Source: a virus
Lineage: Duplodnaviria; Heunggongvirae; Uroviricota; Caudoviricetes
DNA: 64,000 bases
Reading direction: 5' to 3' (one strand)
IMG/VR virus record: IMGVR_UViG_3300005758_000044
Location: 1-64,000 of that record
Part shown: positions 29,117-53,676 of the stretch, one piece after another
How the letters are laid out: each line of letters opens with the position of its first letter
How positions within the stretch are numbered: the first letter of the stretch is position 1
Made by a program: the position numbers and the translations under genes
The notes under the pieces: model-generated
Told to the model about the DNA's origin: nothing
Databases searched by the model: none
The model's input: the letters and a program-made list of their open reading frames with translations, nothing else

Positions 29117-29147
29117 GGTTTGCGGTGATCCTGACTGACAAAACCGC
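29117..29147 (+). repeat. conserved upstream hairpin element (GGTTTGCGGTGATCC...AAAACCGC)
   Basis: stem GCGGT/ACCGC, loop begins GATCC, ends AAA; abuts -35. Confidence 0.6.
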
Positions 29148-29157
29148 TTGACTTTTT

Positions 29158-29185
29158 CTAAACTTGGTATAAACTGTATATACGG
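29158..29185 (+). promoter_or_regulatory. early promoter with CAA-rich leader
   Basis: duplicate of 28692 module. Confidence 0.6.
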
Positions 29186-29216
29186 TAGCAACAACAACAA
29201 CGAACAACGCATATAT

Positions 29217-29465
29217 ATGGGAACACGTAGCAACATTGGTATTCGTAATCTTGACAACACGATTACTGGTATTTACTGTCATTGGGATGGATATCCCGAG
29301 TGGAATGGAAAGATTTTGTTGGAGAATTACAATGATGTTGACAAGGTGAATGCTTTGATGGAGTTGGGTGATTTGTCGAGTTTGCGGATCAAGTTGAATC
29401 CTGAGCCTGGCAAGCCGCATACGTATGATGAGCAGCAGAACGATGTGTGTGGCATATGGACGTGA
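29217..29465 (+). CDS. hypothetical protein
   Basis: ATG after (CAA)n leader; possibly continues via frameshift into 29425-29640. Confidence 0.5.
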   Translation: MGTRSNIGIRNLDNTITGIYCHWDGYPEWNGKILLENYNDVDKVNALMELGDLSSLRIKLNPEPGKPHTYDEQQNDVCGIWT

Positions 29466-29640
29466 TCGAGGTGAGAAGGGAACGGAGAGCAAGTTGTTTA
29501 AGTCGTTGAGTCAGTTTGAGCGGTATATGGATAGTAATGGTGCTCAGTATCAGTATTTGTTTGACACTAATGTTGGCGAGTGGACGTATCGTGATTACAA
29601 GACTGACTGGAGGGTTTTGAAGTTGGAAGATTGTAAGTGA
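29425..29640 (+). CDS. hypothetical protein (overlaps previous in another frame; possible frameshifted continuation)
   Basis: 71-aa ORF with coding-like composition and no promoter of its own. Confidence 0.3.
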   Translation: MMSSRTMCVAYGRDRGEKGTESKLFKSLSQFERYMDSNGAQYQYLFDTNVGEWTYRDYKTDWRVLKLEDCK

Positions 29641-29695
29641 AGTCAAGGGTTTGTGGGCGACCGCGAACCCTTTTTTATGCATGTATATGGTTTTC

Positions 29696-29713
29696 CGCGG
29701 CTGGTTGGTGCAA
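29696..29713 (+). promoter_or_regulatory. ATGGTTTTCCGCGGCTGG motif
   Basis: one of ~15 copies of a conserved 18-mer containing CCGCGG. Confidence 0.5.
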
Positions 29714-29721
29714 ACGACTGC

Positions 29722-29749
29722 TTGACTTTGTATAAAGTCATGATAGGAT
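29722..29749 (+). promoter_or_regulatory. early promoter
   Basis: cttgactttgtataaagtcatgataggat. Confidence 0.55.
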
Positions 29750-29758
29750 GGTGGTCAG

Positions 29759-29941
29759 ATGGATGCTAAATTTTCGAGTGAAGGGTTACCGTTGTGTCCA
29801 CATTGTGAACAGCCTATGGATCATATGCGTCCCAAGGGGCGTGATACTGAGACGATGGGTGGATACAGTGTGGAGTATTTTATTTGTGAGTGTGATTGTG
29901 AATTTGAGCTAATTGATTCAAAAAGGTTGTATCCCGCTTGA
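29759..29941 (+). CDS. small Zn-ribbon protein
   Basis: CPHCEQP...CECDCEF. Confidence 0.5.
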   Translation: MDAKFSSEGLPLCPHCEQPMDHMRPKGRDTETMGGYSVEYFICECDCEFELIDSKRLYPA

Positions 29942-29966
29942 CTTTTTGTAAAAGGTTGGTAGAGTG
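29938..29966 (+). promoter_or_regulatory. early promoter
   Basis: cttgactttttgtaaaaggttggtagagt. Confidence 0.55.
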
Positions 29967-29974
29967 TATTGACG

Positions 29975-30151
29975 ATGAATCGAGACGATGAGCGTAAGGC
30001 GGTTGCTAGTTTGATTTACTTTTCGGATCATGTGACCAAGGATCGAGTGGAACAGTGGATTGAGAAGTTGAAGGAACAGGGTCATGTGGTTGCATCTGAT
30101 ACACGGGAATATGAACCTGCGTATGGCGAACCGTGTTGGTATATTCCTTGA
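29975..30151 (+). CDS. hypothetical protein
   Basis: 58 aa from first ATG. Confidence 0.45.
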   Translation: MNRDDERKAVASLIYFSDHVTKDRVEQWIEKLKEQGHVVASDTREYEPAYGEPCWYIP

Positions 30152-30176
30152 CTTTTTGTAAACCGGTGATATTCTG
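30148..30176 (+). promoter_or_regulatory. early promoter
   Basis: cttgactttttgtaaaccggtgatattct. Confidence 0.55.
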
Positions 30177-30185
30177 TATTTCACG

Positions 30186-30368
30186 ATGAAAACTTGGTTG
30201 GTTATGGATGTAAACGGGTGGGTGTTTCGTCACAATGAATATGGCGATGAACCCGAGTGGATTGGAACGATTGAAGGTGGAGAACATGGCACTCGTTGGT
30301 TTATGATGTATGGAGACAACCGAGTGTTGAATGTGGAAGAACTGCAACAAATCCTTGACTTTCTATGA
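30186..30368 (+). CDS. hypothetical protein
   Basis: 60-aa ORF. Confidence 0.45.
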   Translation: MKTWLVMDVNGWVFRHNEYGDEPEWIGTIEGGEHGTRWFMMYGDNRVLNVEELQQILDFL

Positions 30369-30613
30369 ACAAGCGTATATTGAATACTGCTATTAACAAG
30401 TGTAGTAGGTTTAGTGACACAAAGGAGTGGGTAGGGTATCTTACAGACATGGAAATTGTGACACTGATTGAAGCTGGTGTAACGCCGACAGAGTATTGTC
30501 AACGGCATGTTGAGCGTGCTAGAAGCAACATTAAGTATGGAATTTCCAGTCCTATTTGGTTTTATTTTCATCCCAATGGACTTGTGATGAAAGATTCGTT
30601 GAAAAAGCATTGA
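30365..30613 (+). CDS. hypothetical protein
   Basis: 82-aa ORF. Confidence 0.45.
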   Translation: MNKRILNTAINKCSRFSDTKEWVGYLTDMEIVTLIEAGVTPTEYCQRHVERARSNIKYGISSPIWFYFHPNGLVMKDSLKKH

Positions 30614-30638
30614 TTTTTGGAAAACCCGCTGGTATTTT

Positions 30639-30821
30639 ATGAATGATCTAACAAAGTTGCAGAAAGAGGTTAATGACCTCAAGAACGAACTTCGCACGTC
30701 TAACAGTGAACGTGAACGGCTACAACGCATGGTAAACGACTTGAAGAGAGACAACGAGTTGTTGAGGATGCGTGCTGTTTATGTTCAAAACCAGTACAAT
30801 TCTTTTTGCGATTCTTTCTGA
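30639..30821 (+). CDS. small coiled-coil protein
   Basis: 60 aa heptad. Confidence 0.45.
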   Translation: MNDLTKLQKEVNDLKNELRTSNSERERLQRMVNDLKRDNELLRMRAVYVQNQYNSFCDSF

Positions 30822-30827
30822 AATCGT

Positions 30828-30856
30828 TTGACTTTTTGTAAACCGCTGGTATAGTC
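30828..30856 (+). promoter_or_regulatory. early promoter
   Basis: tttgactttttgtaaaccgctggtatagt 8 nt before helicase ATG. Confidence 0.55.
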
Positions 30857-30864
30857 TTTGAACG

Positions 30865-32223
30865 ATGAAACTACTTGATCCTCAAATTCCTCATTCGGAG
30901 AACTTGCTCAACAGTCTTTATTTGAATGGCATTGCTGCTGATTTGAGTGAGACTGGATGTGGCAAGACGTATGTTGCTACGTATGTGGCAAAAACCATGA
31001 ATGTTCCTGTCGTGGTTATTTGTCCCAAGGCGGTGATTCCTGTTTGGAAGCGGGTTATGGCGAGTGCTGGTATTGGTGCCATGGTGTCGATCAACTATGA
31101 AAAGTTGATGCGTGGCAATACCAAGTATTTGACGTATGATGAAGCCAAGTTGAAGATTCCCAACACGCCGACGTGGCAGAGCATGATTGTGAATCTTCCC
31201 AAAAACTGTTTGATCATTTTGGATGAAGTTCACAAGTGTAAGGGTGCCAAGAGTTTGAATGGTGCTTTTCTTACAGCTTGTAAGTCATATGGCTACAAGT
31301 TGTTGGTGATGAGTGCTACTGCTGCTACCAATCCATTGGAGATGCGTCATTTTGGGTATGCTACCAATCTTCACAACTGGTTCAACTTCAACAAGTGGTG
31401 TGGCAATATTGGTGCTGAGTTTAATGCTCAGTATGGTGGCATGTCTATTGACATGAAGAGTCAGCGGGTGCAAGAAGGAATGAAGTGGATTCATGATCAA
31501 TTGTTCAATGTGCAGGGTATTGCCAGTCGATTGACGCGTGAACAGATGAAGGCTATGTTTCCGGACAATCGGGTGTTGGCCGAGTGTTTTGATATGGGAA
31601 CCAATACTGCCAAGATTCAGGCGGTATACGACCATATGGAGGCTGAGATTGCTCGATTGGATGAACGTTCCAAAGATTATCGTGCTCATGTGTTTGCGGA
31701 GATCATGAAGGCACGTCGTATGGCTGAAATCCTCAAGGTTCCTACTTTGGTCGAAATGATCGAAGATCTGTATGAAGAGGGTATCAGTCCGGTGGTGTTT
31801 GTGAACTTTGAAGACACCATGGCGGCATTGCAGAAGCGACTGGCGTCTTATGGAGACGTTGTTGGAGTGATCAAGGGTGGACAGAGTGCCAAGGAACGTC
31901 AGCTTCACATTGATGAATTTCAGGCCAATACCCGGCGAATTATGCTGGTGAACTTGGCTGCTGGCAATGCTGGTATCAGTCTTCATGATTTGGATGGCAA
32001 GTTTCCTCGACACAGCATTGTGTGTCCTTCGTTTAGTGCCATTAACTTGGTTCAAGCGTTGGGTCGAATTCATCGTGCTGAAGGCAAAAGTCCTTGTTTG
32101 CAGAAGATTGTGTTTGCTGCTGGAACGATTGAAGAGCGGTGCTGTCAACGTGTTCAATCAAAGCTTGACAATCTGGATATGTTGAATGACGGCGATTTGG
32201 TTGGTGACATCAAGATCTGGTGA
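30865..32223 (+). CDS. SF2 DNA helicase
   Basis: motif I LSETGCGKT, motif II ILDEVHK, motif VI QALGRIHRAEG. Confidence 0.8.
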   Translation: MKLLDPQIPHSENLLNSLYLNGIAADLSETGCGKTYVATYVAKTMNVPVVVICPKAVIPVWKRVMASAGIGAMVSINYEKLMRGNTKYLTYDEAKLKIPNTPTWQSMIVNLPKNCLIILDEVHKCKGAKSLNGAFLTACKSYGYKLLVMSATAATNPLEMRHFGYATNLHNWFNFNKWCGNIGAEFNAQYGGMSIDMKSQRVQEGMKWIHDQLFNVQGIASRLTREQMKAMFPDNRVLAECFDMGTNTAKIQAVYDHMEAEIARLDERSKDYRAHVFAEIMKARRMAEILKVPTLVEMIEDLYEEGISPVVFVNFEDTMAALQKRLASYGDVVGVIKGGQSAKERQLHIDEFQANTRRIMLVNLAAGNAGISLHDLDGKFPRHSIVCPSFSAINLVQALGRIHRAEGKSPCLQKIVFAAGTIEERCCQRVQSKLDNLDMLNDGDLVGDIKIW

Positions 32224-32243
32224 TGGTATAGTTTCTATAACCT

Positions 32244-32516
32244 ATGAGTTACAAGCTGGTTGGAATTCGATATCCGAGCTACTACGACGTTTCAAACAAA
32301 CGAGACGTTGCCCCGGTGATCGTTGAAACGGATGATTCAACGAAGTTGAGTGGCATGATTAATGAACTGTTGTTCAATGAACGTGAACAGGATCGAGTCA
32401 ATTATGTTTTGACTCGGTGGGGTGGCAAGATGTATATTTGTGAACCTGTTGACGTTGAGAACAAACGATATGACAAGGTTCAAATCAATTACCATCCGCA
32501 TCAAAGTCTGACTTGA
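32244..32516 (+). CDS. hypothetical protein
   Basis: 90-aa ORF. Confidence 0.5.
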   Translation: MSYKLVGIRYPSYYDVSNKRDVAPVIVETDDSTKLSGMINELLFNEREQDRVNYVLTRWGGKMYICEPVDVENKRYDKVQINYHPHQSLT

Positions 32517-32589
32517 CAAACGAGTGGGTATAGACTACCGTATATATGGTGGTTTATATACCACCCCGGACTATGATTTTCCGCGTAAT

Positions 32590-32666
32590 GGCCCCGTAGC
32601 TCAATTGGACTAGAGCGCACGGCTTCTATCCGTATGGTTGGGGGTTCAAGTCCCTCCGGGGCTACC
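32590..32666 (+). tRNA. tRNA-Arg (anticodon TCT)
   Basis: GGCCCCG acceptor, GCTCAATTGGACTAGAGC D-arm, loop CTTCTAT, GGTTCAAGTCC T-arm, encoded CCA. Confidence 0.7.
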
Positions 32667-32676
32667 AATTTATATT

Positions 32677-33108
32677 ATGACTACTACATCTACTTATATT
32701 GTTGAAAGCGGTAATTGGAAGATACGAATTGTCGCTGAAGACTATGGAGATGAGTATTCATATTTGGAAGCCGCTACACGTGCCATAGAGGGTGTATTTG
32801 GTAGTAGGCCCCTAGGTGAAAAGTGTGAGTTTGTATGTTTGATGGATGCTAAGGGTCAAGACTATTTTGATCTTGATACCAATGTAGAAGAGTTGCCACC
32901 GCCAATGTTTAGTGTGGTGACTGGTGTTCGTAAGGAAAACGAAACAACGTTGCGTGTGTATCTAACCAGCCTTTTGTTTGCCAATGCTGGTCAACCAGTC
33001 AACTTCAAATTGGCAATGCAAGCAGAAGCTTTGGAACCGGATAAAGTCAAGTCATTCAAAGAGTTAGCGGCAAAAAAGTCCAACAAATCTAAAAAGAAAA
33101 AGAGTTGA
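32677..33108 (+). CDS. hypothetical protein
   Basis: start at ATG after the tRNA; Lys-rich tail. Confidence 0.5.
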   Translation: MTTTSTYIVESGNWKIRIVAEDYGDEYSYLEAATRAIEGVFGSRPLGEKCEFVCLMDAKGQDYFDLDTNVEELPPPMFSVVTGVRKENETTLRVYLTSLLFANAGQPVNFKLAMQAEALEPDKVKSFKELAAKKSNKSKKKKS

Positions 33109-33140
33109 CAAACTGATGTGTTGGTGGTAACGTATATATC

Positions 33141-33329
33141 ATGAGTAACAAAGTTATCAGAGATATGAACAACAAGACGGTTGGAACACTTCGCACTCAA
33201 GGAAATGTTACACGTCTTACTGATGTCAACAATCGAACTGTTGGAACTTACAATAGCAAGACCAATGTGACTTACAGTGGTGGAAAGCCTATTGGTCAAG
33301 GTGATCAGTTGCTTCGAATTCGTCTTTAA
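33141..33329 (+). CDS. hypothetical protein (NKTVGT repeats)
   Basis: 62 aa; promoter TTGACAAACTGATG... upstream. Confidence 0.45.
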   Translation: MSNKVIRDMNNKTVGTLRTQGNVTRLTDVNNRTVGTYNSKTNVTYSGGKPIGQGDQLLRIRL

Positions 33330-33436
33330 TACAATGTGGTGTTGGTGTAAGTAGCACGCCTATCATCCCGATAGGAGGTCCAGTTCATAACTGTGGCACC
33401 ACTCCATTTTTATGCACCTATGCAGTGTTTTCCGCG

Positions 33437-33468
33437 CATAAAAAGACCCACCACATAGGGTGGGGTAT
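33437..33468 (-). terminator. rho-independent terminator
   Basis: cccacc-acatag-ggtggg with T-run on minus. Confidence 0.6.
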
Positions 33469-33478
33469 TTGTGGGATG

Positions 33479-33604
33479 TTACACGAAAAACCAAACAATG
33501 TGTAGACCAAAGCCTAATACTGCAAAAAATGCAGCAACAATTAGCAATTGCTTTTGTAGTGGCGTTTGTAGTCGCCAACGTTCTTTAAGTGTGTAATGGT
33601 TCAT
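33479..33604 (-). CDS. small hydrophobic protein (~41 aa)
   Basis: MNHYTLKERWRLQTPLQKQLLIVAAFFAVLGFGLHIVWFFV translated by hand; below ORF-track cutoff. Confidence 0.3.
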   Translation of the reverse strand: MNHYTLKERWRLQTPLQKQLLIVAAFFAVLGFGLHIVWFFV

Positions 33605-33610
33605 TGGATG

Positions 33611-33943
33611 TTACTCGTCTACGGACTTATAGATGGGATCGCCCGCGGGATTATATCCGATAATCTCAACCTTACCTTCTTCGATCAAATTGTCAAGTTC
33701 CTGTTGAATCATTTGCTGTTTGGCAAACTCAACCAATTGTTCTTGACTCATATCGTTTTCTTGCATGAACTGCTGAATTTCTTGTGGCAGTTCATGATCT
33801 TCTGGATAATCTTGGTCAAAAACATCCACGTCGAGTGATGCACAGTGAGTCAACAATGCATCAATGGTTCCTGTAAAACTTCCTGTAATTCGATTGGTTT
33901 CTTTCATTGTACACAGCATACCACATTTTGTATACTGTGTCAA
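33611..33943 (-). CDS. hypothetical acidic protein
   Basis: 110-aa ORF. Confidence 0.45.
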   Translation of the reverse strand: MTQYTKCGMLCTMKETNRITGSFTGTIDALLTHCASLDVDVFDQDYPEDHELPQEIQQFMQENDMSQEQLVEFAKQQMIQQELDNLIEEGKVEIIGYNPAGDPIYKSVDE

Positions 33944-33993
33944 CAGAGAAGTTGGGGATTGGACCCAACTTCATCTTGATGAATGCCAACTAC

Positions 33994-35683: not shown

Positions 35684-35770
35684 ATGTAGTATCTATTACG
35701 GTTAAGAGTCTATCAGAGTTTTAGAGAAAGTCAATGGGTTTTTTAGGATTACCCACAACCTTTTGTTGGG

Positions 35771-36109
35771 TTAGAAATTGATGTCTTGGTGGCGAATCAC
35801 ATGCTTTTCACCATCGTCGTCAACAATAATCTCACGATGAATTTCGGTTCCGATGTCCAGAAATTTCATGCCATCGTCCATGAGCATACAGGTCAGTCCG
35901 ACACGAAACAACCCGCGAAGCTTCTGAATGTCGAGTTTTTCACCGTTGAGCAACACCTTTGCAACGTCATCAACCATCGAAAGACCAGTGTATTCGTCCC
36001 ATGCGGTGTCTTTCCAACACGTCACAAAGTTGTCCCACAAAGCTCTGCGGGTGATAGTGACGCTAACCTTCTTGATGTCCGAAGAAACCACGCTGAAGTT
36101 CGTATTCAT
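35771..36109 (-). CDS. hypothetical protein, paralogue of 28763-29107
   Basis: VSVTITRRALWDNFVTCWKDTAWDEY...HQDINF. Confidence 0.6.
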   Translation of the reverse strand: MNTNFSVVSSDIKKVSVTITRRALWDNFVTCWKDTAWDEYTGLSMVDDVAKVLLNGEKLDIQKLRGLFRVGLTCMLMDDGMKFLDIGTEIHREIIVDDDGEKHVIRHQDINF

Positions 36110-37609: not shown

Positions 37610-37643
37610 ATACAGATGTTATCACCTTTTTAGAGAAAGTCAA

Positions 37644-37675
37644 GCGGTTTTCTGCGAAGGATCACCGCAAACCTT
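37644..37675 (-). repeat. conserved upstream hairpin element (reverse orientation)
   Basis: revcomp GGTTTGCGGTGATCCTTCGCAGAAAACCGC. Confidence 0.55.
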
Positions 37676-37684
37676 GTAAATCAC

Positions 37685-38020
37685 TTACGACTCGTCTTCA
37701 ACTTGGAGCTCGACTTCCTCTTCATCACCCTCGGTGCGGGACATATACCAATCACTTGCGGTGACGGTGCCCTTTTCAAGGTCATACACAATGTCATCAC
37801 CGTAGTCGGAGCCGTCACCAGCACCGCTGTAACCATACGCTCCCCACGCCCAGTCTTCGACATCATTTGCAAAGTCGTCGTCGTCCTTGGGATGTGGAAC
37901 CAGATCGACGTTCAAAAATCCCTCATCGTTTCCACCAGAGAAATGAAGAGTGATCTTCTTGATACCCAACTGCTTGGCCCGGTCGTAAATGGCCTTGTTC
38001 AACGGCATCGGAGTTTCCAT
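37685..38020 (-). CDS. hypothetical highly acidic protein
   Basis: 111 aa D/E/G/Y-rich. Confidence 0.5.
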   Translation of the reverse strand: METPMPLNKAIYDRAKQLGIKKITLHFSGGNDEGFLNVDLVPHPKDDDDFANDVEDWAWGAYGYSGAGDGSDYGDDIVYDLEKGTVTASDWYMSRTEGDEEEVELQVEDES

Positions 38021-38094: not shown

Positions 38095-38457
38095 TCAAGG
38101 GGCAAGTTCCAATCCGGTGGTGGTGCTACGTCTACCCACCTTGAGCATCCAATCTTCTGGATCGTTGTGAAGAAGCTTCAAATAGTCAGCGGGTGTAGGA
38201 ATCCAACCACAATCTTCTTCGACGTGTTGTTCAGCAATCATCTTGGTAGCAATGTGTTGACCTTTGCTGTTGACAACCGTGTGACCGAACTTTTCAATCG
38301 CCCACTGAATACCAGCACTATGATGACGAAGAGCACGATGTGTCCAATCGCCGGTATATTGCTTTGTTTCATCAAACCAATCGTGGATTGCAATGTAGTC
38401 CGAAGGTGAACCGCCCCACTTACGGGCAGAGGATTCTGCATGTTTCCAAGGTGTCAT
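38095..38457 (-). CDS. hypothetical protein, paralogue of 5576-6034
   Basis: HAESSARKWGGSPSDY motif. Confidence 0.55.
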   Translation of the reverse strand: MTPWKHAESSARKWGGSPSDYIAIHDWFDETKQYTGDWTHRALRHHSAGIQWAIEKFGHTVVNSKGQHIATKMIAEQHVEEDCGWIPTPADYLKLLHNDPEDWMLKVGRRSTTTGLELAP

Positions 38458-41579: not shown

Positions 41580-41807
41580 ATGAACGACTACGAAGACGTT
41601 TGTTACGAGGACAGTGTGAGTTCCGAAACAGACGATTACCAGAGTCACGGATGGCCTGGTGACGGTAGCGGCGAGGATGACCTTGCTGACTACAATCAGA
41701 ACGAGGCAGACGACTATCGCCACGAAGGTGCTGAGGATAGTCACCTCGAAATGGAGTATGAGGACCGTAACGGTTGTGGGTATGAAGCCGACGGTTTCGA
41801 CTACTAA
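41580..41807 (+). CDS. highly acidic small protein (DNA-mimic candidate)
   Basis: 75 aa, about 40% D/E, aromatic residues interspersed. Confidence 0.5.
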   Translation: MNDYEDVCYEDSVSSETDDYQSHGWPGDGSGEDDLADYNQNEADDYRHEGAEDSHLEMEYEDRNGCGYEADGFDY

Positions 41808-41863
41808 CTCCAAACAATAAGGTTGGGTGTTATCCTTCTTCGAAAACACCACTCTATTTCTTT

Positions 41864-42064
41864 ATGAAGTGTCAACCTATTATCAGTGTTTTGCATCGTG
41901 AAAACGACGAACTGTTCGTTATTTTCCGCGTGGGTGGATTGATGTTCAACTGGTGGACCAGTGTTCATGCCAAAAACACCTATGGAAAGGTATACATGAA
42001 ACCATATGGCACGGTGTGGTTTGCACAACTTTACCGGCTGGAATTTGTTTATACCACGATTTGA
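41864..42064 (+). CDS. hypothetical protein
   Basis: weak; internal TTTTCCGCG motif; real start may be MFNWW. Confidence 0.3.
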   Translation: MKCQPIISVLHRENDELFVIFRVGGLMFNWWTSVHAKNTYGKVYMKPYGTVWFAQLYRLEFVYTTI

Positions 42065-42573: not shown

Positions 42574-42622
42574 GAAAACTAAGTATTGACTTTCTCTAAA
42601 ACCAAGATACACTGTCTTCACC

Positions 42623-42865
42623 ATGAAACTGAAGAAGATTAAGACCATCAGTGAGTTGGCGAATCTGGCACGAACCAACAAATACTATGAACAGCTTGCT
42701 ATTGTGGCTGCTTCCAATTTGGGTGGTGGCAATTTGAGTTTGAATGAAGCTATCGATTGGTTGAAAACCAATGCCATGGAAACCAACGCATCGGGTGAAG
42801 TTGCTGACAGCGAATCAGGAGTGGTTGATGAAATCAACTTTTGTCGAGATTTGGTGAAGGCTTGA
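42623..42865 (+). CDS. hypothetical protein
   Basis: 80 aa. Confidence 0.5.
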   Translation: MKLKKIKTISELANLARTNKYYEQLAIVAASNLGGGNLSLNEAIDWLKTNAMETNASGEVADSESGVVDEINFCRDLVKA

Positions 42866-42897
42866 CTTTCTCTAAAAGACTGATAAAGTTATTCGAC

Positions 42898-43149
42898 ATG
42901 AGACACAAGTGGATTCGAATGAATTCGTCGTTGCCCAACCTGAACGTGTTGATGGTTGATGGCAAGGAAGCTGGGTTTATTGAAAAGCCCAAGGATACCA
43001 AGACAGATCGTAACGCATGGCGTGTTCATCTTGGTGTGGGTGATCGCAACAAGTTTGTTGGTCATCGGTGGTCCAAAGCGGATGCCCAGCGATTGCTTGA
43101 GAGTTTTTGTGTTGGTGGTGTTCGTGGTTTGAATTACGGTGTGAGATGA
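42898..43149 (+). CDS. hypothetical protein
   Basis: trimmed to ATG 8 nt after -10. Confidence 0.5.
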   Translation: MRHKWIRMNSSLPNLNVLMVDGKEAGFIEKPKDTKTDRNAWRVHLGVGDRNKFVGHRWSKADAQRLLESFCVGGVRGLNYGVR

Positions 43150-43157
43150 AGGTTATA

Positions 43158-43185
43158 GGTTTGCGGTGATCCTAATCAAAACCGC
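43158..43185 (+). repeat. conserved upstream hairpin element
   Basis: AGGTTTGCGGTGATCCTAATCAAAACCGC. Confidence 0.6.
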
Positions 43186-43220
43186 TTGACTTTCTGTAAA
43201 ATGTGGATATTCTGTAACAC

Positions 43221-44076: not shown

Positions 44077-44082
44077 AACACA

Positions 44083-44326: not shown

Positions 44327-44584
44327 TTGATCTTCGTTATGACACTTCAACAGTTTCAAGATGCTTTCGCAATCGCCAAAGATTTCAACCGTGATTTGTC
44401 GGAGGTGGATAACAGCATTCTGTTTGGATATGGTTTGCCCGAGTTCAAGCCGGTGCATACGACGTTGGAAGCAGTTGCGAAGACCATCAGATGGCAAGCG
44501 CTTCAATTCAACGGGCAATGGGATTCTGAGGCTTTGAATGAGATTGCTGAACTGGGAAGACGCAACTTCTTGGTGTTGGGTTGA
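44327..44584 (+). CDS. hypothetical protein
   Basis: 85 aa. Confidence 0.5.
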   Translation: MIFVMTLQQFQDAFAIAKDFNRDLSEVDNSILFGYGLPEFKPVHTTLEAVAKTIRWQALQFNGQWDSEALNEIAELGRRNFLVLG

Positions 44585-44592
44585 AGTTGAAA

Positions 44593-44619
44593 AGGTTTGC
44601 GGTGATCCTATAAAACCGC
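44593..44619 (+). repeat. conserved upstream hairpin element
   Basis: AGGTTTGCGGTGATCCTATAAAACCGC. Confidence 0.6.
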
Positions 44620-44656
44620 TTGACTTTTTCAACAAATCGAATACAGTAGTTGAACA

Positions 44657-45116: not shown

Positions 45117-45167
45117 CACTTGACTTTCTCTAAAACTCAGTTAGACTAACGTCCACAACAATAAATT

Positions 45168-46613: not shown

Positions 46614-46973
46614 ATGAAGAAGAACATCATTCACGTTATTTATCCTGCTCAGACGACGATTGCTTTTGTTCATGAGTGTGATGAAACGGTGGAAACGATT
46701 CTGGAGTTGGTGTTTGGAATGTTCAACCACGGTTCGTGTCAAGAGACTGAACTGTTTCTCAAGTCCAAGATTCGTTCGTTGAGTGTCAACGACATTGTGT
46801 GTGTGAACGGGCGTTATTTTCAATGTGCTCCGGTTGGTTGGAATGAAGTGTCACCCGAGTATGTGACTCAGTTGGAAAAGGATGTGGCTAACGCTCCTAT
46901 GACTTCGCTTCATGGTCCTTGGTTTGGATTGAGTGAAGTGATGTATGCTCGTCAAAAGGCTCAGTTGGTTTGA
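46614..46973 (+). CDS. hypothetical protein
   Basis: 119 aa. Confidence 0.5.
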   Translation: MKKNIIHVIYPAQTTIAFVHECDETVETILELVFGMFNHGSCQETELFLKSKIRSLSVNDIVCVNGRYFQCAPVGWNEVSPEYVTQLEKDVANAPMTSLHGPWFGLSEVMYARQKAQLV

Positions 46974-46981
46974 TGTTGACA

Positions 46982-47007
46982 AGGTTTACGGTAATCCTAA
47001 AAACCGT
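46982..47007 (+). repeat. upstream hairpin element variant with compensatory stem change (ACGGT/ACCGT)
   Basis: GGTTTACGGTAATCCTAAAAACCGT. Confidence 0.55.
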
Positions 47008-47015
47008 TTGAATCG

Positions 47016-47032: not shown

Positions 47033-47085
47033 CGATGTATGATGGGGCTTGACTTTTTCTAAAAAAAGTGTAGATTATATACACA

Positions 47086-47340: not shown

Positions 47341-47730
47341 ATGAACGCTAACGATCTTGCTGTGTGTTTGATTCCTTCCAATTTGACGTGGTTCACCTTT
47401 AGTCAAAACAATAGCGGTGGACGGTTCACTGTGGATGACAAGGTGGATGCATATGTGATTATTCAGGCACCTGATGCTGATACCGCGAACCAATTGGCTG
47501 AACGTATCGGTATCTACTTCAACGGTGTGGACGAGGGATACGACTGTGAGTGCTGTGGCGACCGATGGAGTTCGATGTACAGTGATGACTACGGAACCGA
47601 TATGCCTAAGATTTACGGACATGAAGTTTCGTATTCGCCTGATGCTGTGATGACCAGTGTGTACCCGGGCGATACTTGGATAAAGATGGGTGTCAAGGTT
47701 TATCCTTACTCGGTGATCAGCAAGATGTAA
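47341..47730 (+). CDS. hypothetical protein
   Basis: 129 aa. Confidence 0.5.
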   Translation: MNANDLAVCLIPSNLTWFTFSQNNSGGRFTVDDKVDAYVIIQAPDADTANQLAERIGIYFNGVDEGYDCECCGDRWSSMYSDDYGTDMPKIYGHEVSYSPDAVMTSVYPGDTWIKMGVKVYPYSVISKM

Positions 47731-47738
47731 CAACTTAC

Positions 47739-47770
47739 AAGGTTTGCGGTGATCCTTCGCAGAAAACCGA
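47739..47770 (+). repeat. conserved upstream hairpin element
   Basis: GGTTTGCGGTGATCCTTCGCAGAAAACCGA. Confidence 0.55.
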
Positions 47771-47811
47771 TTGACTTTCTTCAATTGTCTGTTATCTTGA
47801 AATCACAACAT

Positions 47812-48905: not shown

Positions 48906-48946
48906 TTGACTTTCGATAAAACTGTGATACATTGATTTCAGATTTC

Positions 48947-49021
48947 GGGATCGTAGCTCAGTGGTAGAGCAGTGGTCTTTTAAACCATTGGTCGTGGGTT
49001 CAAGTCCCACCGGTCCCACCA
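48947..49021 (+). tRNA. tRNA-Lys (anticodon TTT), canonical
   Basis: GGGATCGTAGCTCAGTGGTAGAGCAGTGGTCTTTTAAACCATTGGTCGTGGGTTCAAGTCCCACCGGTCCCACCA; own early promoter at 48905. Confidence 0.8.
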
Positions 49022-49023
49022 CT

Positions 49024-49172
49024 TTTAGAATTCATCAGGTTGCCGAATACGAGGCTTAATCTGAAAGGACGATGAGTCTGATGAATTCTTGATTTACAGA
49101 TTGTTGTCCGCGTGGATATGGTACGAACGTGGACTCACGAAGCGAGGCGGCCCCAAATCGACAACAATCTGT
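49024..49172 (+). ncRNA. two consecutive long-stem hairpins downstream of tRNA-Lys
   Basis: 12-bp perfect stems AGAATTCATCAG/CTGATGAATTCT and CAGATTGTTGTC/GACAACAATCTG each enclosing 38-50 nt. Confidence 0.35.
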
Positions 49173-49174
49173 TA

Positions 49175-49203
49175 AGGTTTGCGGTGATCCTAATCAAAAC
49201 CGC
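49175..49203 (+). repeat. conserved upstream hairpin element
   Basis: AGGTTTGCGGTGATCCTAATCAAAACCGC. Confidence 0.6.
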
Positions 49204-49249
49204 TTGACTTTCTTCACAGAAGTTCTTTACAAGTCAGAAAAGTCTGATA

Positions 49250-49800
49250 AGATATTTTCAGTTGATGAGGCTATAGACAATCCGTTGGGAAATAAAGCAG
49301 AGAAATGACGGGACTCTGCCATCAACCTATAATTTTCAGTGGAAAATAACCGGAAGTAATGTACCGGGCCTCCACAAGGAGGTGAGATACGTAGTCATCG
49401 TGTATCCACTGACAGCTAACTCAGAGAGTGCCAGTCAATAGATGCCGAGCATGGGGCGACTGGTAATGCCGCTGAGGAAATGGAGAACCAGACCTGCTGT
49501 TCAAAGAATGAAAACTGGATCACTTTTAACCAAGCAATAGAGATTAGCTACTCGAAAACAGTCAAAAGTTGTACTGATAACAGCGTTGCAGGCGGCCTGT
49601 AAAATAATGTACGCAAACGGAAACAGATGAACAATGACTTTTTTGCTTGGTTGTATTTTTGAAAGCATAGCAAGATAACAGATAGACGCCGAACCTGTTG
49701 GTTGTAAAAGGTGACGCACACCGCCGTCGCGGGGGTCCACGTTCAATTCGTGGTAGGTTCGTAGGGAACATACGGCCATCCTTAAATGGAGAGTCGGTGA
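49250..49800 (+). ncRNA. promoter-driven ~550-nt non-coding transcript (unclassified structured RNA candidate)
   Basis: early promoter at 49204 followed by 560 nt with no plus-strand ORF >40 aa; local stems e.g. CCTCC-ACAA-GGAGG; ends at next promoter 49810. Confidence 0.4.
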
Positions 49801-49854
49801 AATCCTGAAACTTGCTATTGACTTTCTCTAAAACTCTGATAAGGTAGATTCACA

Positions 49855-50013
49855 ATGATTGAGATTATCCGTAATCCGTTGACAAAGTTGTCACTTCTCA
49901 GCAACATTTGGATTGAAGATGGTATGTTGTTTCACATCCTCATTCCACATGACACAGAACAAATCGAATTGTTGACTGACAATGAGATTGGTCAATATAT
50001 GGGCGGCAATTAA
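49855..50013 (+). CDS. small protein (~52 aa)
   Basis: hand-translated after promoter at 49810. Confidence 0.3.
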   Translation: MIEIIRNPLTKLSLLSNIWIEDGMLFHILIPHDTEQIELLTDNEIGQYMGGN

Positions 50014-50221
50014 AAAGTTGTTGACTTCATGATCTTTCGTTGGTACAGACAATGGAAATGTAGTCGTGGAAACCACGAATTGGTGTCTGGTTATGTGCCT
50101 ACCAACAACCCTTTGGCACTAGATCGTGAAGTCAAGTGTGTGCATTGTTCATTCAAAAAAATCGTTGGTAGACAATACTTCTTCGATTGACTTTCAGTAA
50201 ACCACTGATAGGATAATCATC

Positions 50222-50458
50222 ATGGCATACGATCCGGATCTTAGAAACTGTCAAAACATTCTTGAATCCAAGAGAACTTTTGTTGCCGATGACAGACAAC
50301 ATGCATATGAATCTGTTGTCAATGCCCTTAGCAAGGCAGGCTTTGGTGTGACCATGGTGGGTGATGTTCTCACTGTTCGTAACAAAGGATTTGATGCTAC
50401 GTTTATTCTTCACGAAGTAAGGCTTGACAGAGACCGCGTCGAACCTGATGGAAAATAA
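50222..50458 (+). CDS. hypothetical protein
   Basis: 78 aa. Confidence 0.5.
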   Translation: MAYDPDLRNCQNILESKRTFVADDRQHAYESVVNALSKAGFGVTMVGDVLTVRNKGFDATFILHEVRLDRDRVEPDGK

Positions 50459-50720
50459 AAGCGTGTATATGTCAAATACGAACTGGACAGATACACCGCC
50501 AAATACGCCGGGGTGGTATTGGGTAAGACGCAAGAAAGAATGTAGTGTGGAGTATTTTCCATACTATGGTCAATACCCCGAACACTGGTCTGTCATTCGT
50601 CAGAATACTTTGGACATGCTGATTGAAAGCGGTAACCAACAGCTAACAGATGAATTTGCCAATCTTGACCAGAAGACGTTCGTCGTAGAATACAACGGTC
50701 CAATCTTTCCACCAAACTAG
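50448..50720 (+). CDS. hypothetical protein
   Basis: start uncertain (MENKSVYM or MSNTNW). Confidence 0.4.
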   Translation: MENKSVYMSNTNWTDTPPNTPGWYWVRRKKECSVEYFPYYGQYPEHWSVIRQNTLDMLIESGNQQLTDEFANLDQKTFVVEYNGPIFPPN

Positions 50721-50758
50721 TTGACTTTCAGTAAACCACTGATAGGATATTCGCACAA

Positions 50759-50917
50759 TGAAAATCTTGGTGTATTATCCTGCTACGCAAAAAACCCAAA
50801 TCATTGAATGTGAAAGAATTGAGGCGGGTCCCGGCGGAATCATGTGGGTCAATCGCCGTGATTGTGGATTTGTTGGATTTTGCGAGGACTATACAATTAC
50901 CATAGTCGATCATTGAC
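50759..50917 (+). CDS. small protein (~52 aa)
   Basis: hand-translated after promoter at 50720. Confidence 0.3.
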
Positions 50918-51085
50918 TTTCAATTGACTGGTGGCGAAACGGCAAACGCACGGAGGCATCCGATTCTCCAATGTTGTATGTCGGCAGACAGAAGCATTGG
51001 CATTGCACGAATGAAGGTTCAAATCCTTCCCAGTCAACCATTTTCCGTTTGACATTTTCTAAAACCCTGATAACCTATTGTTGTT

Positions 51086-51433
51086 ATGAAAATCACATAC
51101 TCAATCGCAGAAGCACTCACCATCCTCACCGAACGTGCCAAGGCACTCAACCACATTCAAGATTTGTCGGTTGAAGTAACATACCCACAAAACCCCATTG
51201 GTGCACAAGACACCAATACCACCGATCAACATCCTTTGGAAGCTTACGCCGTAGTCGTCCGGGAATATGGCGGTTCTAGGCACAATACGAACAAGATTCC
51301 AGCCATCAAGGCGATTCGAGACCGAGTCCGGGGTTTGGGACTCGCTGACGCAAAGTGTGTCATTGAATCCGACCCCGCGTTGGTGCTCATTCACTTTTCT
51401 CGCTGCAATACGTTGAGCGGAATTTCCGAGTGA
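51086..51433 (+). CDS. ribosomal protein bL12 (L7/L12) C-terminal-domain homologue
   Basis: IKAIRDRVRGLGLADAKCVIESDPA aligns to bL12 CTD [24 protein letters not shown]; novel N-terminal half. Confidence 0.6.
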   Translation: MKITYSIAEALTILTERAKALNHIQDLSVEVTYPQNPIGAQDTNTTDQHPLEAYAVVVREYGGSRHNTNKIPAIKAIRDRVRGLGLADAKCVIESDPALVLIHFSRCNTLSGISE

Positions 51434-51474
51434 CCAGCCGATAATCAATTCACAAGGTTGTGGGTCATCCTTTC

Positions 51475-51508
51475 AACAAAACCCCACCCATATATACAGG
51501 GCATCTGC
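51475..51508 (+). repeat. upstream hairpin element variant (GTGGGT/ACCCCAC stem)
   Basis: GGTTGTGGGTCATCCTTTCAACAAAACCCCACCC. Confidence 0.5.
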
Positions 51509-51580
51509 GCTGCCCACCAGCCGCTTTTGTCGCCGGATGCCACTTGACTTTCTCTAAAACCGATATACACTGTACCCACA

Positions 51581-51838
51581 ATGAATCCTACGAACTACAC
51601 GGTCGGTCAACGCATCATCCTCACCAAAGACAACTGGTTGACCATTCGCAACAGCAATCGCAGTATTCACGCATATCCAGACGATAACTACGTTAACATC
51701 GTTTATCAATTGATGACCAACAACGTCGCAGGCACCGTCACCAAGCGATTTACGCCCGGTTATGAGTTCAACGTTACCTTTGACAATGGTCAAGTGCTGC
51801 AAATGAAAGATCACTGGGTCACTCCCATTTCCAAGTAA
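51581..51838 (+). CDS. hypothetical protein
   Basis: 85 aa. Confidence 0.5.
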   Translation: MNPTNYTVGQRIILTKDNWLTIRNSNRSIHAYPDDNYVNIVYQLMTNNVAGTVTKRFTPGYEFNVTFDNGQVLQMKDHWVTPISK

Positions 51839-51893
51839 TTCAGTTCAAAAATCCGGTTGACTTTCTCTAAAACTTCGGTAACCTAGTCTCCTA

Positions 51894-52109
51894 ATGAATA
51901 ACGAACTGATCGCTAAGGCCCTCAAGAAGTTCCCCAAGGCCAAAAAGATCGCAGTCGAAAACTTCACCATGGGCTACAACGAACTGTCTATGGAAGCTTC
52001 CATGAACCTCGAAATGGATGCCTCACTCTACAAGTGGAACGCACACACCACCAACGCCATTCGTTACGTGCTACAACACAAACACGCATTCAAAACCATG
52101 GCAGACTAA
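51894..52109 (+). CDS. hypothetical protein
   Basis: 71 aa. Confidence 0.5.
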   Translation: MNNELIAKALKKFPKAKKIAVENFTMGYNELSMEASMNLEMDASLYKWNAHTTNAIRYVLQHKHAFKTMAD

Positions 52110-52136
52110 CACACAATCGGTTGTGGGTGATCCGTC
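52110..52136 (+). repeat. upstream hairpin element variant (GGGT/ACCC stem)
   Basis: GGTTGTGGGTGATCCGTCAAAACCC. Confidence 0.5.
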
Positions 52137-52307
52137 AAAACCCTCAACAACACCACTACAAATAGTAGTGTCGCGACAATAAGAACTGCTATTCAATCAA
52201 AAACACCTCGCTACGTCAACCACATAATGGTTTTCCGCGCCTGGTGTTGCTGCTTTTTATAGAAAGTTCTTGTGTTTGCCACTCTGCCGGTATAGAGTAT
52301 TGCCACG

Positions 52308-52625
52308 ATGAACGACACCGTGACACCCTTTGTTCCCACCCGCTTTGTTCCCACCCGTGACGATCTGATCGGCTACATCTCCGATATCTACAAGGAAATC
52401 AATGGGTTTCGTCCTCGCCCCGACTGGTCCATGCTCACTTACGAGGAGCTTGACAAGTGGGGTCGTGAGTTGTCCGCCGAAGCCATCCTCCACCGTAAGC
52501 AACAGGTGCAATGGGCCCGCCTGGCCCGCAAACTACGTCGTGCTCGTCAACGGGCTTGGGTGCAAAAGAAACGCACCTACTTCACACCCGTCACCTTCAC
52601 ACTGGGCATGCTAATGCCCACCTAA
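52308..52625 (+). CDS. hypothetical Arg-rich protein (GC-rich)
   Basis: 105 aa. Confidence 0.5.
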   Translation: MNDTVTPFVPTRFVPTRDDLIGYISDIYKEINGFRPRPDWSMLTYEELDKWGRELSAEAILHRKQQVQWARLARKLRRARQRAWVQKKRTYFTPVTFTLGMLMPT

Positions 52626-52664
52626 ACCACCGGGAGCTGTCAAGCTCCCTTTTTCACTATTGCC

Positions 52665-52682
52665 ATGGTTTTCCGCGGCTGG
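52665..52682 (+). promoter_or_regulatory. ATGGTTTTCCGCGGCTGG motif copy
   Basis: exact consensus. Confidence 0.5.
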
Positions 52683-52689
52683 TTGATGC

Positions 52690-52720
52690 ATAAAAAGACC
52701 CGGATTTTACTCCGGGTTGT
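52690..52720 (-). terminator. rho-independent terminator
   Basis: gacccgga-ttttac-tccgggt with T-run on minus. Confidence 0.65.
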
Positions 52721-52727
52721 CAATCTT

Positions 52728-53238
52728 TTACTTGGCAAAGTTCAACTTCCTGAACTTGATGGCACGAATCGAATCCATCTTGAGAGTGATAACCGGCTGC
52801 TTGAAGTCACCCCAATCCTTCTCAGGAATAAAGGCCTTCATCTTGGTAACTTCCTCCTCAGTCAGCTCCCGACCATTCAGAACATACTTGGTTCCCTTGG
52901 TCCGATGAGGAAAGAACTGAAGGTATTTCTGGTCCGGGTTCTTCTTGGAAAAACACAGCGGAGTGACCTTGCCATCGTTGGTGGTCTCATGCAGATACCA
53001 CGTCTCGCCACCCTCGTAGTTCGCCTCAACACCAGCCTCCTTCATCCGACGATTCACTCGAGCCTCATGGTTCACATTCACCAAACCATTGCGCCGGGTA
53101 ACCTTCACAGCACCCACAAAAGGATTGCCAGTCTTGCGCATCTTCACTTCGGTCTCAGTCTCGAGCGTCACAAACTGACACTCAGTGCCGAGAATACGGA
53201 GGAAGGTAACCAATTCGCTGTTGTCTTTGATAGTGATC
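52728..53238 (-). CDS. hypothetical protein
   Basis: track ORF trimmed; no in-frame ATG after the promoter region so GTG start assumed. Confidence 0.4.
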
Positions 53239-53463
53239 GTCTTCACGGGTAAAAGACTACCAGATGATGTCCATCTTTCAACAAATAAAAGCCGCCGGGT
53301 GCCACATAAATGCCTTGACATATACCACCACCCACCAATCCCCATACACATCCATATCACCTTGTCAATACCTTTCTTCAGTTTCCGCGTATGCTCAAAC
53401 ATACACTTTGTTCAAAATATGCCTTGTATATACGCCAACACCTGATACTCTGTTCTCCGACAT

Positions 53464-53638
53464 GAATAAGAACATCGTCCGCTACAACGTCACCAAAAAC
53501 CTCCAAACTCCCATGAACCTCCGCATCAGCCTCGACACTCGCCTTCGCCGCTCTCATGTCACCCGTGTCGCCCGTGACTACGCACATCTTCGTGAATCCA
53601 TGGGTGACCTCACTGTCAAGAACTGGGACAACCTCTAA
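53464..53638 (+). CDS. small protein (~58 aa)
   Basis: MNKNIVRYNV...; promoter with TGATACTCT -10. Confidence 0.35.
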
Positions 53639-53648
53639 CATCACAATC

Positions 53649-53676
53649 GGTTCGGGGTCATCCATAAACCCCACCA
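53649..53676 (+). repeat. upstream hairpin element variant (GGGGT/ACCCC stem)
   Basis: GGTTCGGGGTCATCCATAAACCCCACC. Confidence 0.5.

Follow-up and report, generated by a model that had tools for sequence, protein, structure and literature searches.

What is the short element that recurs between genes in the early region of a tailed virus, and what does it do there? The question is raised by a window of 64,000 nucleotides (nt), positions 1 to 64,000 of the Caudoviricetes record IMGVR_UViG_3300005758_000044 of IMG/VR, for which a preliminary description had proposed about ten copies of a conserved stem-loop lying between the stop codon of one gene and the early promoter of the next. We find that the element is an H-type pseudoknot of two covarying helices rather than a simple hairpin, that it lies on the sense strand at cistron boundaries, and that it is distributed across phages of several host phyla. 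As to its function, we give a probability of roughly 0.4 to the reading in which it is a compact RNA roadblock or insulator at gene boundaries, which would take up its fold immediately beyond a terminating ribosome, delimit or stabilise transcripts and, in the phage of the window, attenuate read-through together with a U-rich -35 region.

A pseudoknot of two covarying helices

Read from 5' to 3', the consensus of about 33 nt consists of the first strand of helix S1, (A)AGG; loop L1, UU; the first strand of helix S2, NNNGGU; loop L2, NAU; the second strand of S1, CCU(U); loop L3, N0-10 followed by AAAA; and CCNNN, the second strand of S2. The stem noted in the preliminary description is S2 (NNNGGU:ACCNNN), and it is real; the simple hairpin is not, as the AAGG that had been taken for a flank pairs with CCUU inside the hairpin loop to form S1, and the two helices interlock. 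A covariance model (R1) was built from 36 equal-length copies of 33 nt (alignment A2), because a MAFFT alignment (A1) could not place the gap in L3. Run with filters off, this model, whose E-values are rough, finds 12 copies in the window at E<=0.01 and no other convincing match. All ten sites listed earlier carry the motif and most had been located within a few bases, although 51475 is ~20 nt off (true position 51452-51493) and 52110 is ~5-9 nt off (52115-52147); the copies at 35732-35764(-) and 41817-41853(+) had been missed. The stem variants GCGGT/ACCGC, ACGGT/ACCGT, TGGGT/ACCCA and GGGGT/ACCCC and the constant loop ends GATCC or CATCC...AAA are present as then described. The copies, with the open reading frames (ORFs) that precede them, are as follows:

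29113 to 29150, plus strand: copy 1, S1 GGG:CCU (with a G.U pair), S2 GCGGU:ACCGC, L3 insert GACUGAC, 23.3 bits; 7 nt past the TGA of ORF 28763-29107, adjoining the -35 box TTGACT at 29148
35732 to 35764, minus strand: copy 2, absent from the earlier list, S1 AGG:CCU, S2 UGGGU:ACCCA, 40.4 bits; after the TAA of ORF 35771-36109(-), adjoining a -35 box at 35734
37641 to 37677, minus strand: copy 3, S1 AAGG:CCUU, S2 GCGGU:ACCGC, L3 insert UCGCAG as in copy 8, 30.1 bits; after the TAA of ORF 37685-38020(-), adjoining a -35 box at 37643
41817 to 41853, plus strand: copy 4, divergent, absent from the earlier list, the otherwise invariant GGU:ACC replaced by UGU:ACA (a compensated change), 21.1 bits, E 0.0099; after the TAA of ORF 41580-41807, without a promoter, the ATG of ORF 41864-42064 ~12 nt past the stem
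43154 to 43188, plus strand: copy 5, S1 UAGG:CCUA (outer pair compensatory), S2 GCGGU:ACCGC, L3 as in copy 9, 30.4 bits; after the TGA of ORF 42841-43149, adjoining the promoter 43186-43213
44590 to 44622, plus strand: copy 6, closest to the family consensus, 46.5 bits; after the TGA of ORF 44327-44584, adjoining the promoter 44620-44647
46979 to 47010, plus strand: copy 7, S2 ACGGU:ACCGU, 34.2 bits; after the TGA of ORF 46614-46973, with the promoter 47049-47076 39 nt downstream and a GGTTTTCCGCGGCTG motif between
47737 to 47773, plus strand: copy 8, S2 GCGGU:ACCGA (last pair broken), L3 insert as in copy 3, 21.4 bits; after the TAA of ORF 47341-47730, adjoining the promoter 47771-47798
49172 to 49206, plus strand: copy 9, same as copy 5 from GGUUU through the -35 region, 30.9 bits; ~150 nt past tRNA-Lys (48947-49021), adjoining TTGACT at 49204-49209
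51452 to 51493, plus strand: copy 10, S1 AAGG:CCUU, S2 GUGGG(U):(A)CCCAC (several registers are possible, of which this is one), 26.3 bits; after the TAA of ORF 51086-51433, with the promoter 51544-51571 51 nt downstream
52115 to 52147, plus strand: copy 11, S1 CGG:CCG (compensatory), S2 GGGU:ACCC, 27.9 bits; after the TAA of ORF 51894-52109, no adjoining promoter
53645 to 53675, plus strand: copy 12, S2 GGGGU:ACCCC, S1 only GG:CC, L3 AAA not AAAA, 21.2 bits; after the TAA of ORF 53264-53638, closing the rightward early block, with a C-rich non-coding stretch but no promoter downstream

All 12 copies are intergenic, sense to their flanking genes and confined to the small-ORF region at 29.1-53.7 kb, where they are dispersed at spacings of 0.6-8 kb; no tandem array was noticed. 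For the core GGTTNNNGGTNATCC the count in the window is 11 versus 0.02 expected, a value reached by none of 100 dinucleotide-preserving shuffles, whereas a loose pattern allowing two mismatches is uninformative (91 matches versus 68 expected). Two pairs of copies share identical L3 inserts, UCGCAG in 37641-37677(-) and 47737-47773(+) and UAAUC in 43154-43188 and 49172-49206, and in both pairs ~45-50 nt of flank are also identical through the -35 box, one of the pairs lying on opposite strands. This sharing points to recent copying or gene conversion of a cassette.

The evidence for the fold comes mainly from copies outside the window. Pattern scans of IMG/VR gave more than 100 loci per scan, and external counts in this report are among the matches listed; these copies were found with patterns that fix the positions called invariant here, and unbiased statistics are taken from the free positions only. 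Both helices covary across more than 150 independent viral copies. Among 162 unique copies from a pattern that leaves the tested positions free, the fourth S2 pair, beside GGU:ACC, is paired in 95% versus 42% after shuffling (CG 67, GC 33, UA 30, AU 22), which bears out the earlier claim that compensatory change preserves the pairing, a sign of selection on a folded single strand, and the next S2 pair outward is paired in 73.5% versus 49%. For the third S1 pair the proportion is 84% (136/162) versus 61.5% in shuffles, the best of which gave 113/162 and none of 2000 of which reached the observed value; its types are AU 89, GC 20, GU 13, CG 8 and UA 4. When the model matches were re-aligned to R1 (alignment A3, 61 distinct rows), 88.6% of cells were paired versus 75.7% in shuffled alignments (0/500 reached the observed value), with a covariation score of 0.364 versus 0.121, and pairing fell to 34-57% when the 3' partners were slid by 1-3 columns. 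Some external copies extend S1 with full compensation (UGUGG:CCACA, GUCGG:CCGAC, GGCGG:CCGCC), and S1 compensation is also present inside the window, as UAGG:CCUA at 43154 and CGG:CCG at 52115. At the three best pairs G.U exceeds A.C by 30 to 8, an excess indicating that the folded strand is the sense strand and, most simply, that it is RNA.

With L1 and L2 left free in the search, 40 of 46 supported copies had UU in L1 and 40 of 46 kept the A of L2, in the pattern N-A-(U 25, A 10). The invariant positions, namely GG:CC, GGU:ACC, the UU of L1, the A of L2 and the final AAAA of L3, cluster where the two helices meet; there they may form base triples, a triplex core that would make a very small fold unusually stable. 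Nested folding alone gives -4.7 to -9.8 kcal/mol (z -0.3 to -1.9); with nested stems this weak, stability must be supplied by the pseudoknot or tertiary core or by a partner. For some copies the prediction favours another nested helix, GGUUU:AAACC, on which covariation is uninformative, both of its sides being invariant.

Placement at gene boundaries and distribution among genomes

Enrichment at gene boundaries had been put forward as a check on the element, and with the crude ORF caller used here 73% of the supported viral copies are intergenic, with ~18% of the sequence being intergenic. The gene upstream is co-oriented in 86% of cases and the gene downstream in 82%; 11-20 copies lie at convergent junctions, which indicates that a co-directional downstream gene is not required. 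The distance from the stop codon to AAGG is 5-11 nt in ~59% of copies (12, 13, 11, 10, 7, 7 and 8 copies at 5 to 11 nt, respectively), with a sharp onset at 5 nt, a peak at 5-8 nt and almost nothing at 0-4 nt, while the distance to the next ORF with an ATG start is broad, at 4-190 nt. The consistent anchor across phages is the upstream stop codon, not a promoter. The proteins encoded upstream are unrelated, falling into 68 clusters among 106 and including NAMPT and a major head protein, which argues for a generic rather than a gene-specific role; the downstream genes are also unrelated. Flanking sequence is rich in A 5' of the element and rich in A/U and poor in G 3' of it, and the ~10 nt after S2 are U-enriched (3.6 U of 8 versus 2.4 in the background) and poor in G. 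At least five U in the first 8 nt after S2 are found in only ~30% of copies, for example ACCGCUUUUUUUAUAUG, and many copies are A-rich there.

The link with early promoters, by contrast, belongs to the lineage of the window. Promoter-like sites that fit TTGACTTTCTCTAAAAC-N-CTGATAnnnT, with an extended -10 element, number about 50 and are near-identical; they lie at 27.9-52 kb on both strands, 6-10 nt before an ATG (for example 42586-42613, 45120-45147 and 49818-49845). The site that makes a composite cassette with copy 5 is:

43186 to 43213, plus strand: early promoter, TTGACT-N16-TATTCT, with an ATG 7 nt past the -10 box

Checks of 24 larger ORFs across the window showed no Shine-Dalgarno (SD) sequence ahead of them, and the phage appears to express most of its genes as leaderless or near-leaderless monocistronic units. 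Equivalent promoters adjoin copies 1, 2, 3, 6 and 8, and TTGACT adjoins copy 9. The earlier placement of the element immediately upstream of promoters is correct for these seven copies (29113, 35732, 37641, 43154, 44590, 47737 and 49172), but 46979 and 51452 have their promoter 39-51 nt away and 41817, 52115 and 53645 have none; most carrier phages have one copy, lacking a promoter, in each ~10 kb locus, and no promoter follows the copies in other phages and Clostridia. Conversely, only seven of the ~50 early promoters adjoin a pseudoknot, with two more lying 39-51 nt past one, and at most other early junctions the upstream stop codon stands 3-5 nt before the -35 box. As most early promoters lack it, the pseudoknot is not a promoter component. 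Where a promoter does adjoin, the second strand of S2 runs directly into UUGACUUUYU, and another small hairpin (43906) adjoins a -35 box in the same way.

Comparison of orthologous junctions indicated that relatives L016, L048 and L035 are without the element and that L170 keeps it. The element appears to be dispensable, modular and recently copied, as described for the promoter-early stem-loop (PeSL) cassettes of T4-like phages. At the L035 ortholog of the 41580-41807 junction, only the 3' half (..GCAGAAAACCCTTGA..) stands before the promoter; it looks like a decayed copy, comparable to the "half PeSLs" of those phages.

Beyond the window, six unrelated contigs of IMG/VR contain the exact window variant with its full 3' half. 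At 35-80% protein identity, many of the loci that carry the element come from distant relatives of the window phage; in others no similarity to it was detected, and carriers include phages without SD sequences. A BLAST search with concatenated variants against 50,697 cultured-phage records gave one carrier lineage, the Polaribacter phages P12002L and P12002S. P12002L (L287, NC_028924) has one unannotated copy, 47449-47481(-), with UAA as its L2; it separates gp81, whose stop codon is 5 nt away, from gp80, which starts 22 nt further on, and this junction is close to where the leftward early operon begins. A scan of 185,579 species genomes (GTDB) gave 83 matches, mostly in metagenome-assembled genome (MAG) contigs of Clostridia, Flavobacteriales and others; S2 is paired in about 49 of them, approximately the excess over an estimated ~40-50 chance matches. 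Among these is a near-invariant chromosomal subfamily, AAGGUUAUAGGUAAUCC..AAAACCUAA, in GTDB MAG contigs of ~14 AT-rich Clostridia species (L201, L202, L205, L211, L225, L232, L238, L253, L259, L261, L277, L278, L281 and L282), which places the motif outside phages as well. It lies in 5' untranslated regions (UTRs) and intercistronic spacers, 9-14 nt before the SD sequence of unrelated housekeeping genes (ftsH, ftsY, rnc, hpt, pyrF, an RNase J-like gene and others), and several copies have a promoter-like sequence 10-40 nt upstream.

Searches for a known counterpart were negative: against Rfam 15, only tRNAs scored above the gathering threshold and nothing relevant appeared at E<=10, including with an 81-nt query, and searches of the literature, by concept and by literal sequence, turned up no description of the element. 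A genome-language-model preprint that mentions phage pseudoknots was set aside, as it concerns other RNAs.

Candidate functions

The roadblock or insulator reading starts from a cis-acting RNA of ~33 nt transcribed as the tail of the upstream gene, in which S1, (A)AGG:CCU(U), and S2, NNNGGU:ACCNNN, would be stacked on each other. With a stop codon in the A site, the minimum of 4-5 nt that separates it from the first pair corresponds to the mRNA kept single-stranded in the entry channel, and the ribosomal helicase site lies at about +11 from the P-site codon. The pseudoknot would fold just outside such a ribosome, where translation would not melt it, and could be placed as near the ORF as is possible without being unwound at each round of termination. 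It would then block 3'-to-5' exoribonucleases, defining and stabilising the 3' end of the upstream message. Lying in a 5' UTR or intercistronic spacer, it could instead shield the downstream ribosome-binding site and message from 5'-to-3' decay and from upstream sequence, which would fit the Clostridia. In the window phage, the fusion of S2 to UUGACUUUYU (ACCGC-UUGACUUUYU) might attenuate read-through between near-leaderless monocistronic units, following the logic of PeSLs. The triplex core, the resistance to exonucleases and the attenuation are all proposals. A precedent exists in the repetitive extragenic palindromic (REP) elements: those near stop codons are a barrier to exonucleases, and at <16 nt from the stop they also influence the ribosome that terminates there (PMC12306157).

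Several observations weigh against this reading. One is the shortness of the stems; another is that a hairpin of any kind, if stable, would do as a roadblock. A roadblock needs no such sequence conservation, which makes a specific partner the strongest rival; conservation across phages of different host phyla fits such a partner, be it a protein, the ribosome or a ligand, at least as well. The Clostridial copies are positioned relative to the downstream SD (9-14 nt) and not to the stop codon. Termination cannot be the general function, given that a U-tract follows so few copies and that many are A-rich there, and canonical terminators with GC-rich hairpins and U-tracts are also present in the region, leaving the need for a second device unexplained. 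Relatives lacking the element at orthologous junctions have nothing in its place, which implies that it is dispensable.

A wider form of the same idea is possible, though we hold it more tentatively: the element may represent an undescribed, widespread class of ~33-nt triplex pseudoknots acting as a universal "full stop" at cistron boundaries in phages of several phyla and some Clostridia. Such RNAs might stop RNase J, PNPase or RNase R and withstand the helicase of the ribosome, as a bacterial counterpart of the exoribonuclease-resistant RNAs of viruses, or their junction core might dock on the ribosome entry site or on the exit channel of RNA polymerase/NusA.

The rival with the best claim, which we nevertheless consider unlikely, is a specific recognition site, whose junction core would bind a conserved protein or ribonucleoprotein (a phage early protein, an endoribonuclease, NusA/RNA polymerase or the ribosome) and trigger RNA processing into units or a change in the transcription complex. 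It would account for conservation beyond what pairing needs, since GGUU, GGU, A(U), CC and AAAACC are near-invariant while the stems vary, and hosts as distant as Flavobacteriia and Clostridia, together with phages lacking SD sequences, would suit a universal partner. The composition of the flanks is like that at many RNase cleavage sites, and some copies stand directly before tRNA genes (loci L038 and L071). However, no protein family lies consistently next to the element, the genes on either side are unrelated, and the sequence after the stem contains no 3' CCA-like or other conserved cleavage motif. The sole shared neighbour noticed, an HNH endonuclease in six motif-bearing loci, was dropped as a candidate partner, being 1.4-10 kb from the element and not adjacent to it.

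Somewhat less probable again is a translational device, acting either on the terminating ribosome, by stalling it or lowering expression, or on how translation of the following cistron is initiated, where it might insulate, provide a standby site or, in hosts that do without an SD, replace the SD helix. The spacing of 5-11 nt from the stop matches that of frameshift and read-through stimulators and would put the pseudoknot at the channel by which mRNA enters the ribosome. Some copies form a sub-cluster 4-9 nt ahead of an ATG that lacks an SD, the Clostridial copies precede the SD of many unrelated genes, and the AAGG:CCUU of S1 resembles an SD:anti-SD helix; the stop-proximal effect of REPs (PMC12306157) is again a precedent. 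Against these stand the stop codons themselves, whose usage is unremarkable (TAA 65%, TGA 19%, TAG 16%) and shows no leaky-stop bias, the lack of a slippery heptamer, a spacer whose length is unphased, so that no extension frame is conserved, and the broad overall distance to the next start. In the window, moreover, the element is separated by a promoter from the next near-leaderless start, and it cannot be in the primary transcript of that gene.

It is improbable that the element is chiefly a modular or selfish cassette at the level of DNA, in which pseudoknot and promoter spread together by recombination or gene conversion, the conserved sequence then being a substrate for recombination or mobility, possibly folded as single-stranded DNA and with little RNA function. 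The identical L3 inserts and flanks of 37641(-) and 47737(+), on opposite strands, and of 43154 and 49172 would be expected from such spread, as would presence and absence at the orthologous junctions of relatives, the half-copy remnant in L035 and the concentration of copies in the ORFan-rich early region; G.T pairs are tolerated in single-stranded DNA too, and PeSLs are a precedent (PMC2839356, PMC4122927). Yet two interlocked covarying helices with constant loops would be hard to maintain across hundreds of unrelated contigs without a structural function, orientation is tied to the direction of transcription, most phages carry one copy per ~10 kb locus without a promoter, and no association with a transposase or recombinase was noticed in the loci examined.

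We regard an ordinary intrinsic (Rho-independent) terminator with a conserved hairpin as no better a candidate. Copies do follow stop codons in the sense orientation, with a good U-tract after ~30% of them and the interrupted tract UUGACUUUYU after S2 in the window. But the preliminary description was right that this is not a classic terminator: a loop of 11-20 nt on a stem of 5-6 bp, at the nested energies given above, is outside the norms, a terminator scan picks none of the 12 copies yet finds canonical terminators in the region, and most copies lack a U-tract. Clostridial copies occur within operons and 5' UTRs directly before the SD, and neither the covariation of S1 nor the invariant loops would be explained.

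A ligand-sensing, riboswitch-like aptamer of the preQ1-I, SAM-II or guanidine-III fold class is very unlikely, for although the size and topology match the smallest aptamers, with invariant nucleotides at the junction and an A-rich L3, no Rfam riboswitch model matched even at E<=10 on an 81-nt query, the associated genes share no theme, and in the window the element lies upstream of promoters, which leaves no expression platform.

Other ideas were rejected. The 16S rRNA 3' end is buried in part in helix 45; complementarity to it, or mimicry, was considered as AAGG..GGUGAUCC..AACCGC resembles the reverse complement of the terminus, and was dropped as the matching N and stem positions vary freely. 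Dam/GATC sites were excluded by the free N position among copies, and CRISPR-repeat mimics, nut/put antitermination sites, tRNA-like elements, small ribozymes and tRNA mimicry of the internal ribosome entry site type had no supporting feature.

If both the fold and the roadblock function are true, the element would be among the smallest widely conserved RNA tertiary motifs outside riboswitches and a general way for phages to punctuate packed genes, including in hosts without SD sequences and between near-leaderless genes. It would found a new Rfam family, improve the annotation of gene boundaries in viromes and provide a portable and compact part, insulator or stabiliser, for synthetic biology. 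A further use would be as a tractable system for how a ribosome terminating 5 nt away, an exonuclease or an RNA polymerase meets such a fold, the sharp 5-nt lower limit of the distance from stop codon to pseudoknot being comparable with the known geometry of the ribosomal mRNA entry channel. P12002L, which with P12002S is the only cultured carrier lineage found, is a possible experimental system.

Several other features of the window were recorded. A second repeat, GGTTTTCCGCGGCTG, has nine copies at <=3 mismatches versus 0.77 expected (27859, 29689, 34511, 36390, 39499(-), 40827(-), 47017, 52229 and 52667); they are mostly intergenic near early promoters, twice just downstream of a pseudoknot copy, and may be an operator or other protein-binding site. 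After the last pseudoknot, ~380 nt of non-coding sequence (53676-54052), very C-rich on the plus strand and containing CCCCACCC-type repeats and a GGGGTAGCGCTACCCC palindrome, coincide with a change of sign in GC skew between the early block and a tRNA-rich block, and may be an origin or regulatory region. Nine of the 12 tRNAs found in the window by ARAGORN cluster at 57953-63695, with an extra tRNA-like Rfam match at 63409-63486 and an HNH endonuclease gene, 58485-58994(-), inserted within the cluster. Two paralogous small proteins, 5576-6034(-) in the late-strand block and 38095-38457(-) in the early block, belong to PHROG 8143 (function unknown). Accessory genes include a Zeta-toxin/AAA-like kinase (25668-26402(-)), an SPFH/Band 7 protein (2995-3906(-)) and an NAD-dependent sugar epimerase/dehydratase (61654-62556(+)), and further genes encode a ligase (956-2104(-)), a dCMP deaminase (7708-8208(-)) and a collagen-like tail fibre (13608-15224). 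The closest cultured homologues have only ~35% identity; megablast and blastn of the window against the 50,697 phage records found no relatives, tblastn with its helicase and ligase gave distant matches only, and looking up exact protein sequences led to metagenome runs alone.

Comparison with known systems

In each family with which it was compared, some defining features are ones that the element lacks. In T4-like phages, PeSLs are stem-loop terminators fused to sigma70-like early promoters and repeated between small ORFan early genes in plastic regions (Arbiol et al. 2010, PMC2839356; Comeau et al. 2014, PMC4122927); closely related phages differ by gains and losses of them, their copies homogenise, and the stem-loop is thought to stop read-through (PMC2839356, PMC4122927). 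Seven to nine of the 12 window copies share this cassette architecture, and all 12 lie in the small-ORF region at 29-54 kb. A PeSL, however, is a plain hairpin of G/C runs whose sequence varies between phage groups, whereas the element described here is a pseudoknot with an invariant core common to unrelated phages and bacteria, mostly without a promoter; the first 50 kb of the PeSL-bearing phage KVP40 contain no copy.

REP elements and bacterial interspersed mosaic elements (BIMEs) are likewise repeated, structured, transcribed and intergenic, often <=15 nt past a stop codon, to be compared with 5-11 nt in ~59% of the copies here, and REPs stabilise the upstream mRNA segment and stall terminating ribosomes when <16 nt from the stop (PMC12306157). 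They are long, GC-rich, imperfect palindromes, specific to lineages and linked to RAYT transposases, in contrast to a short AU-rich pseudoknot that occurs across phages of several phyla, with no transposase noticed in the loci examined. Intrinsic terminators resemble the element in their position at gene 3' ends, on the sense strand, and in U enrichment after the 3' arm in a subset of copies; they differ from it in its large loop, weak stem, second covarying helix, general lack of a U-tract and sites within Clostridial operons and 5' UTRs.

Similarities of structure lie elsewhere. ToxI-like type III antitoxin RNAs are pseudoknot units of ~35 nt that act in phage-host conflict and form tandem arrays beside a toxin gene, unlike the element, which is dispersed and anchored to stop codons, has no Rfam ToxI match and has no toxin neighbour seen, no toxin-directed search having been made. 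Luteovirus frameshift stimulators and the preQ1-I, SAM-II and guanidine-III aptamers have two stems of 4-6 bp, a short L1 and an A-rich L3, as here, and a spacing of 5-9 nt from the decoding site is typical of recoding stimulators, while the distance of the element from the stop peaks at 5-8 nt. These triplex pseudoknots differ from it in that no slippery site among the codons before the stops, leaky-stop bias, extension ORF, Rfam aptamer match or coherent regulon accompanies the element. By function its nearest counterparts are the PeSL cassettes and the REP elements, and by structure the luteoviral frameshifters and the preQ1-I class.

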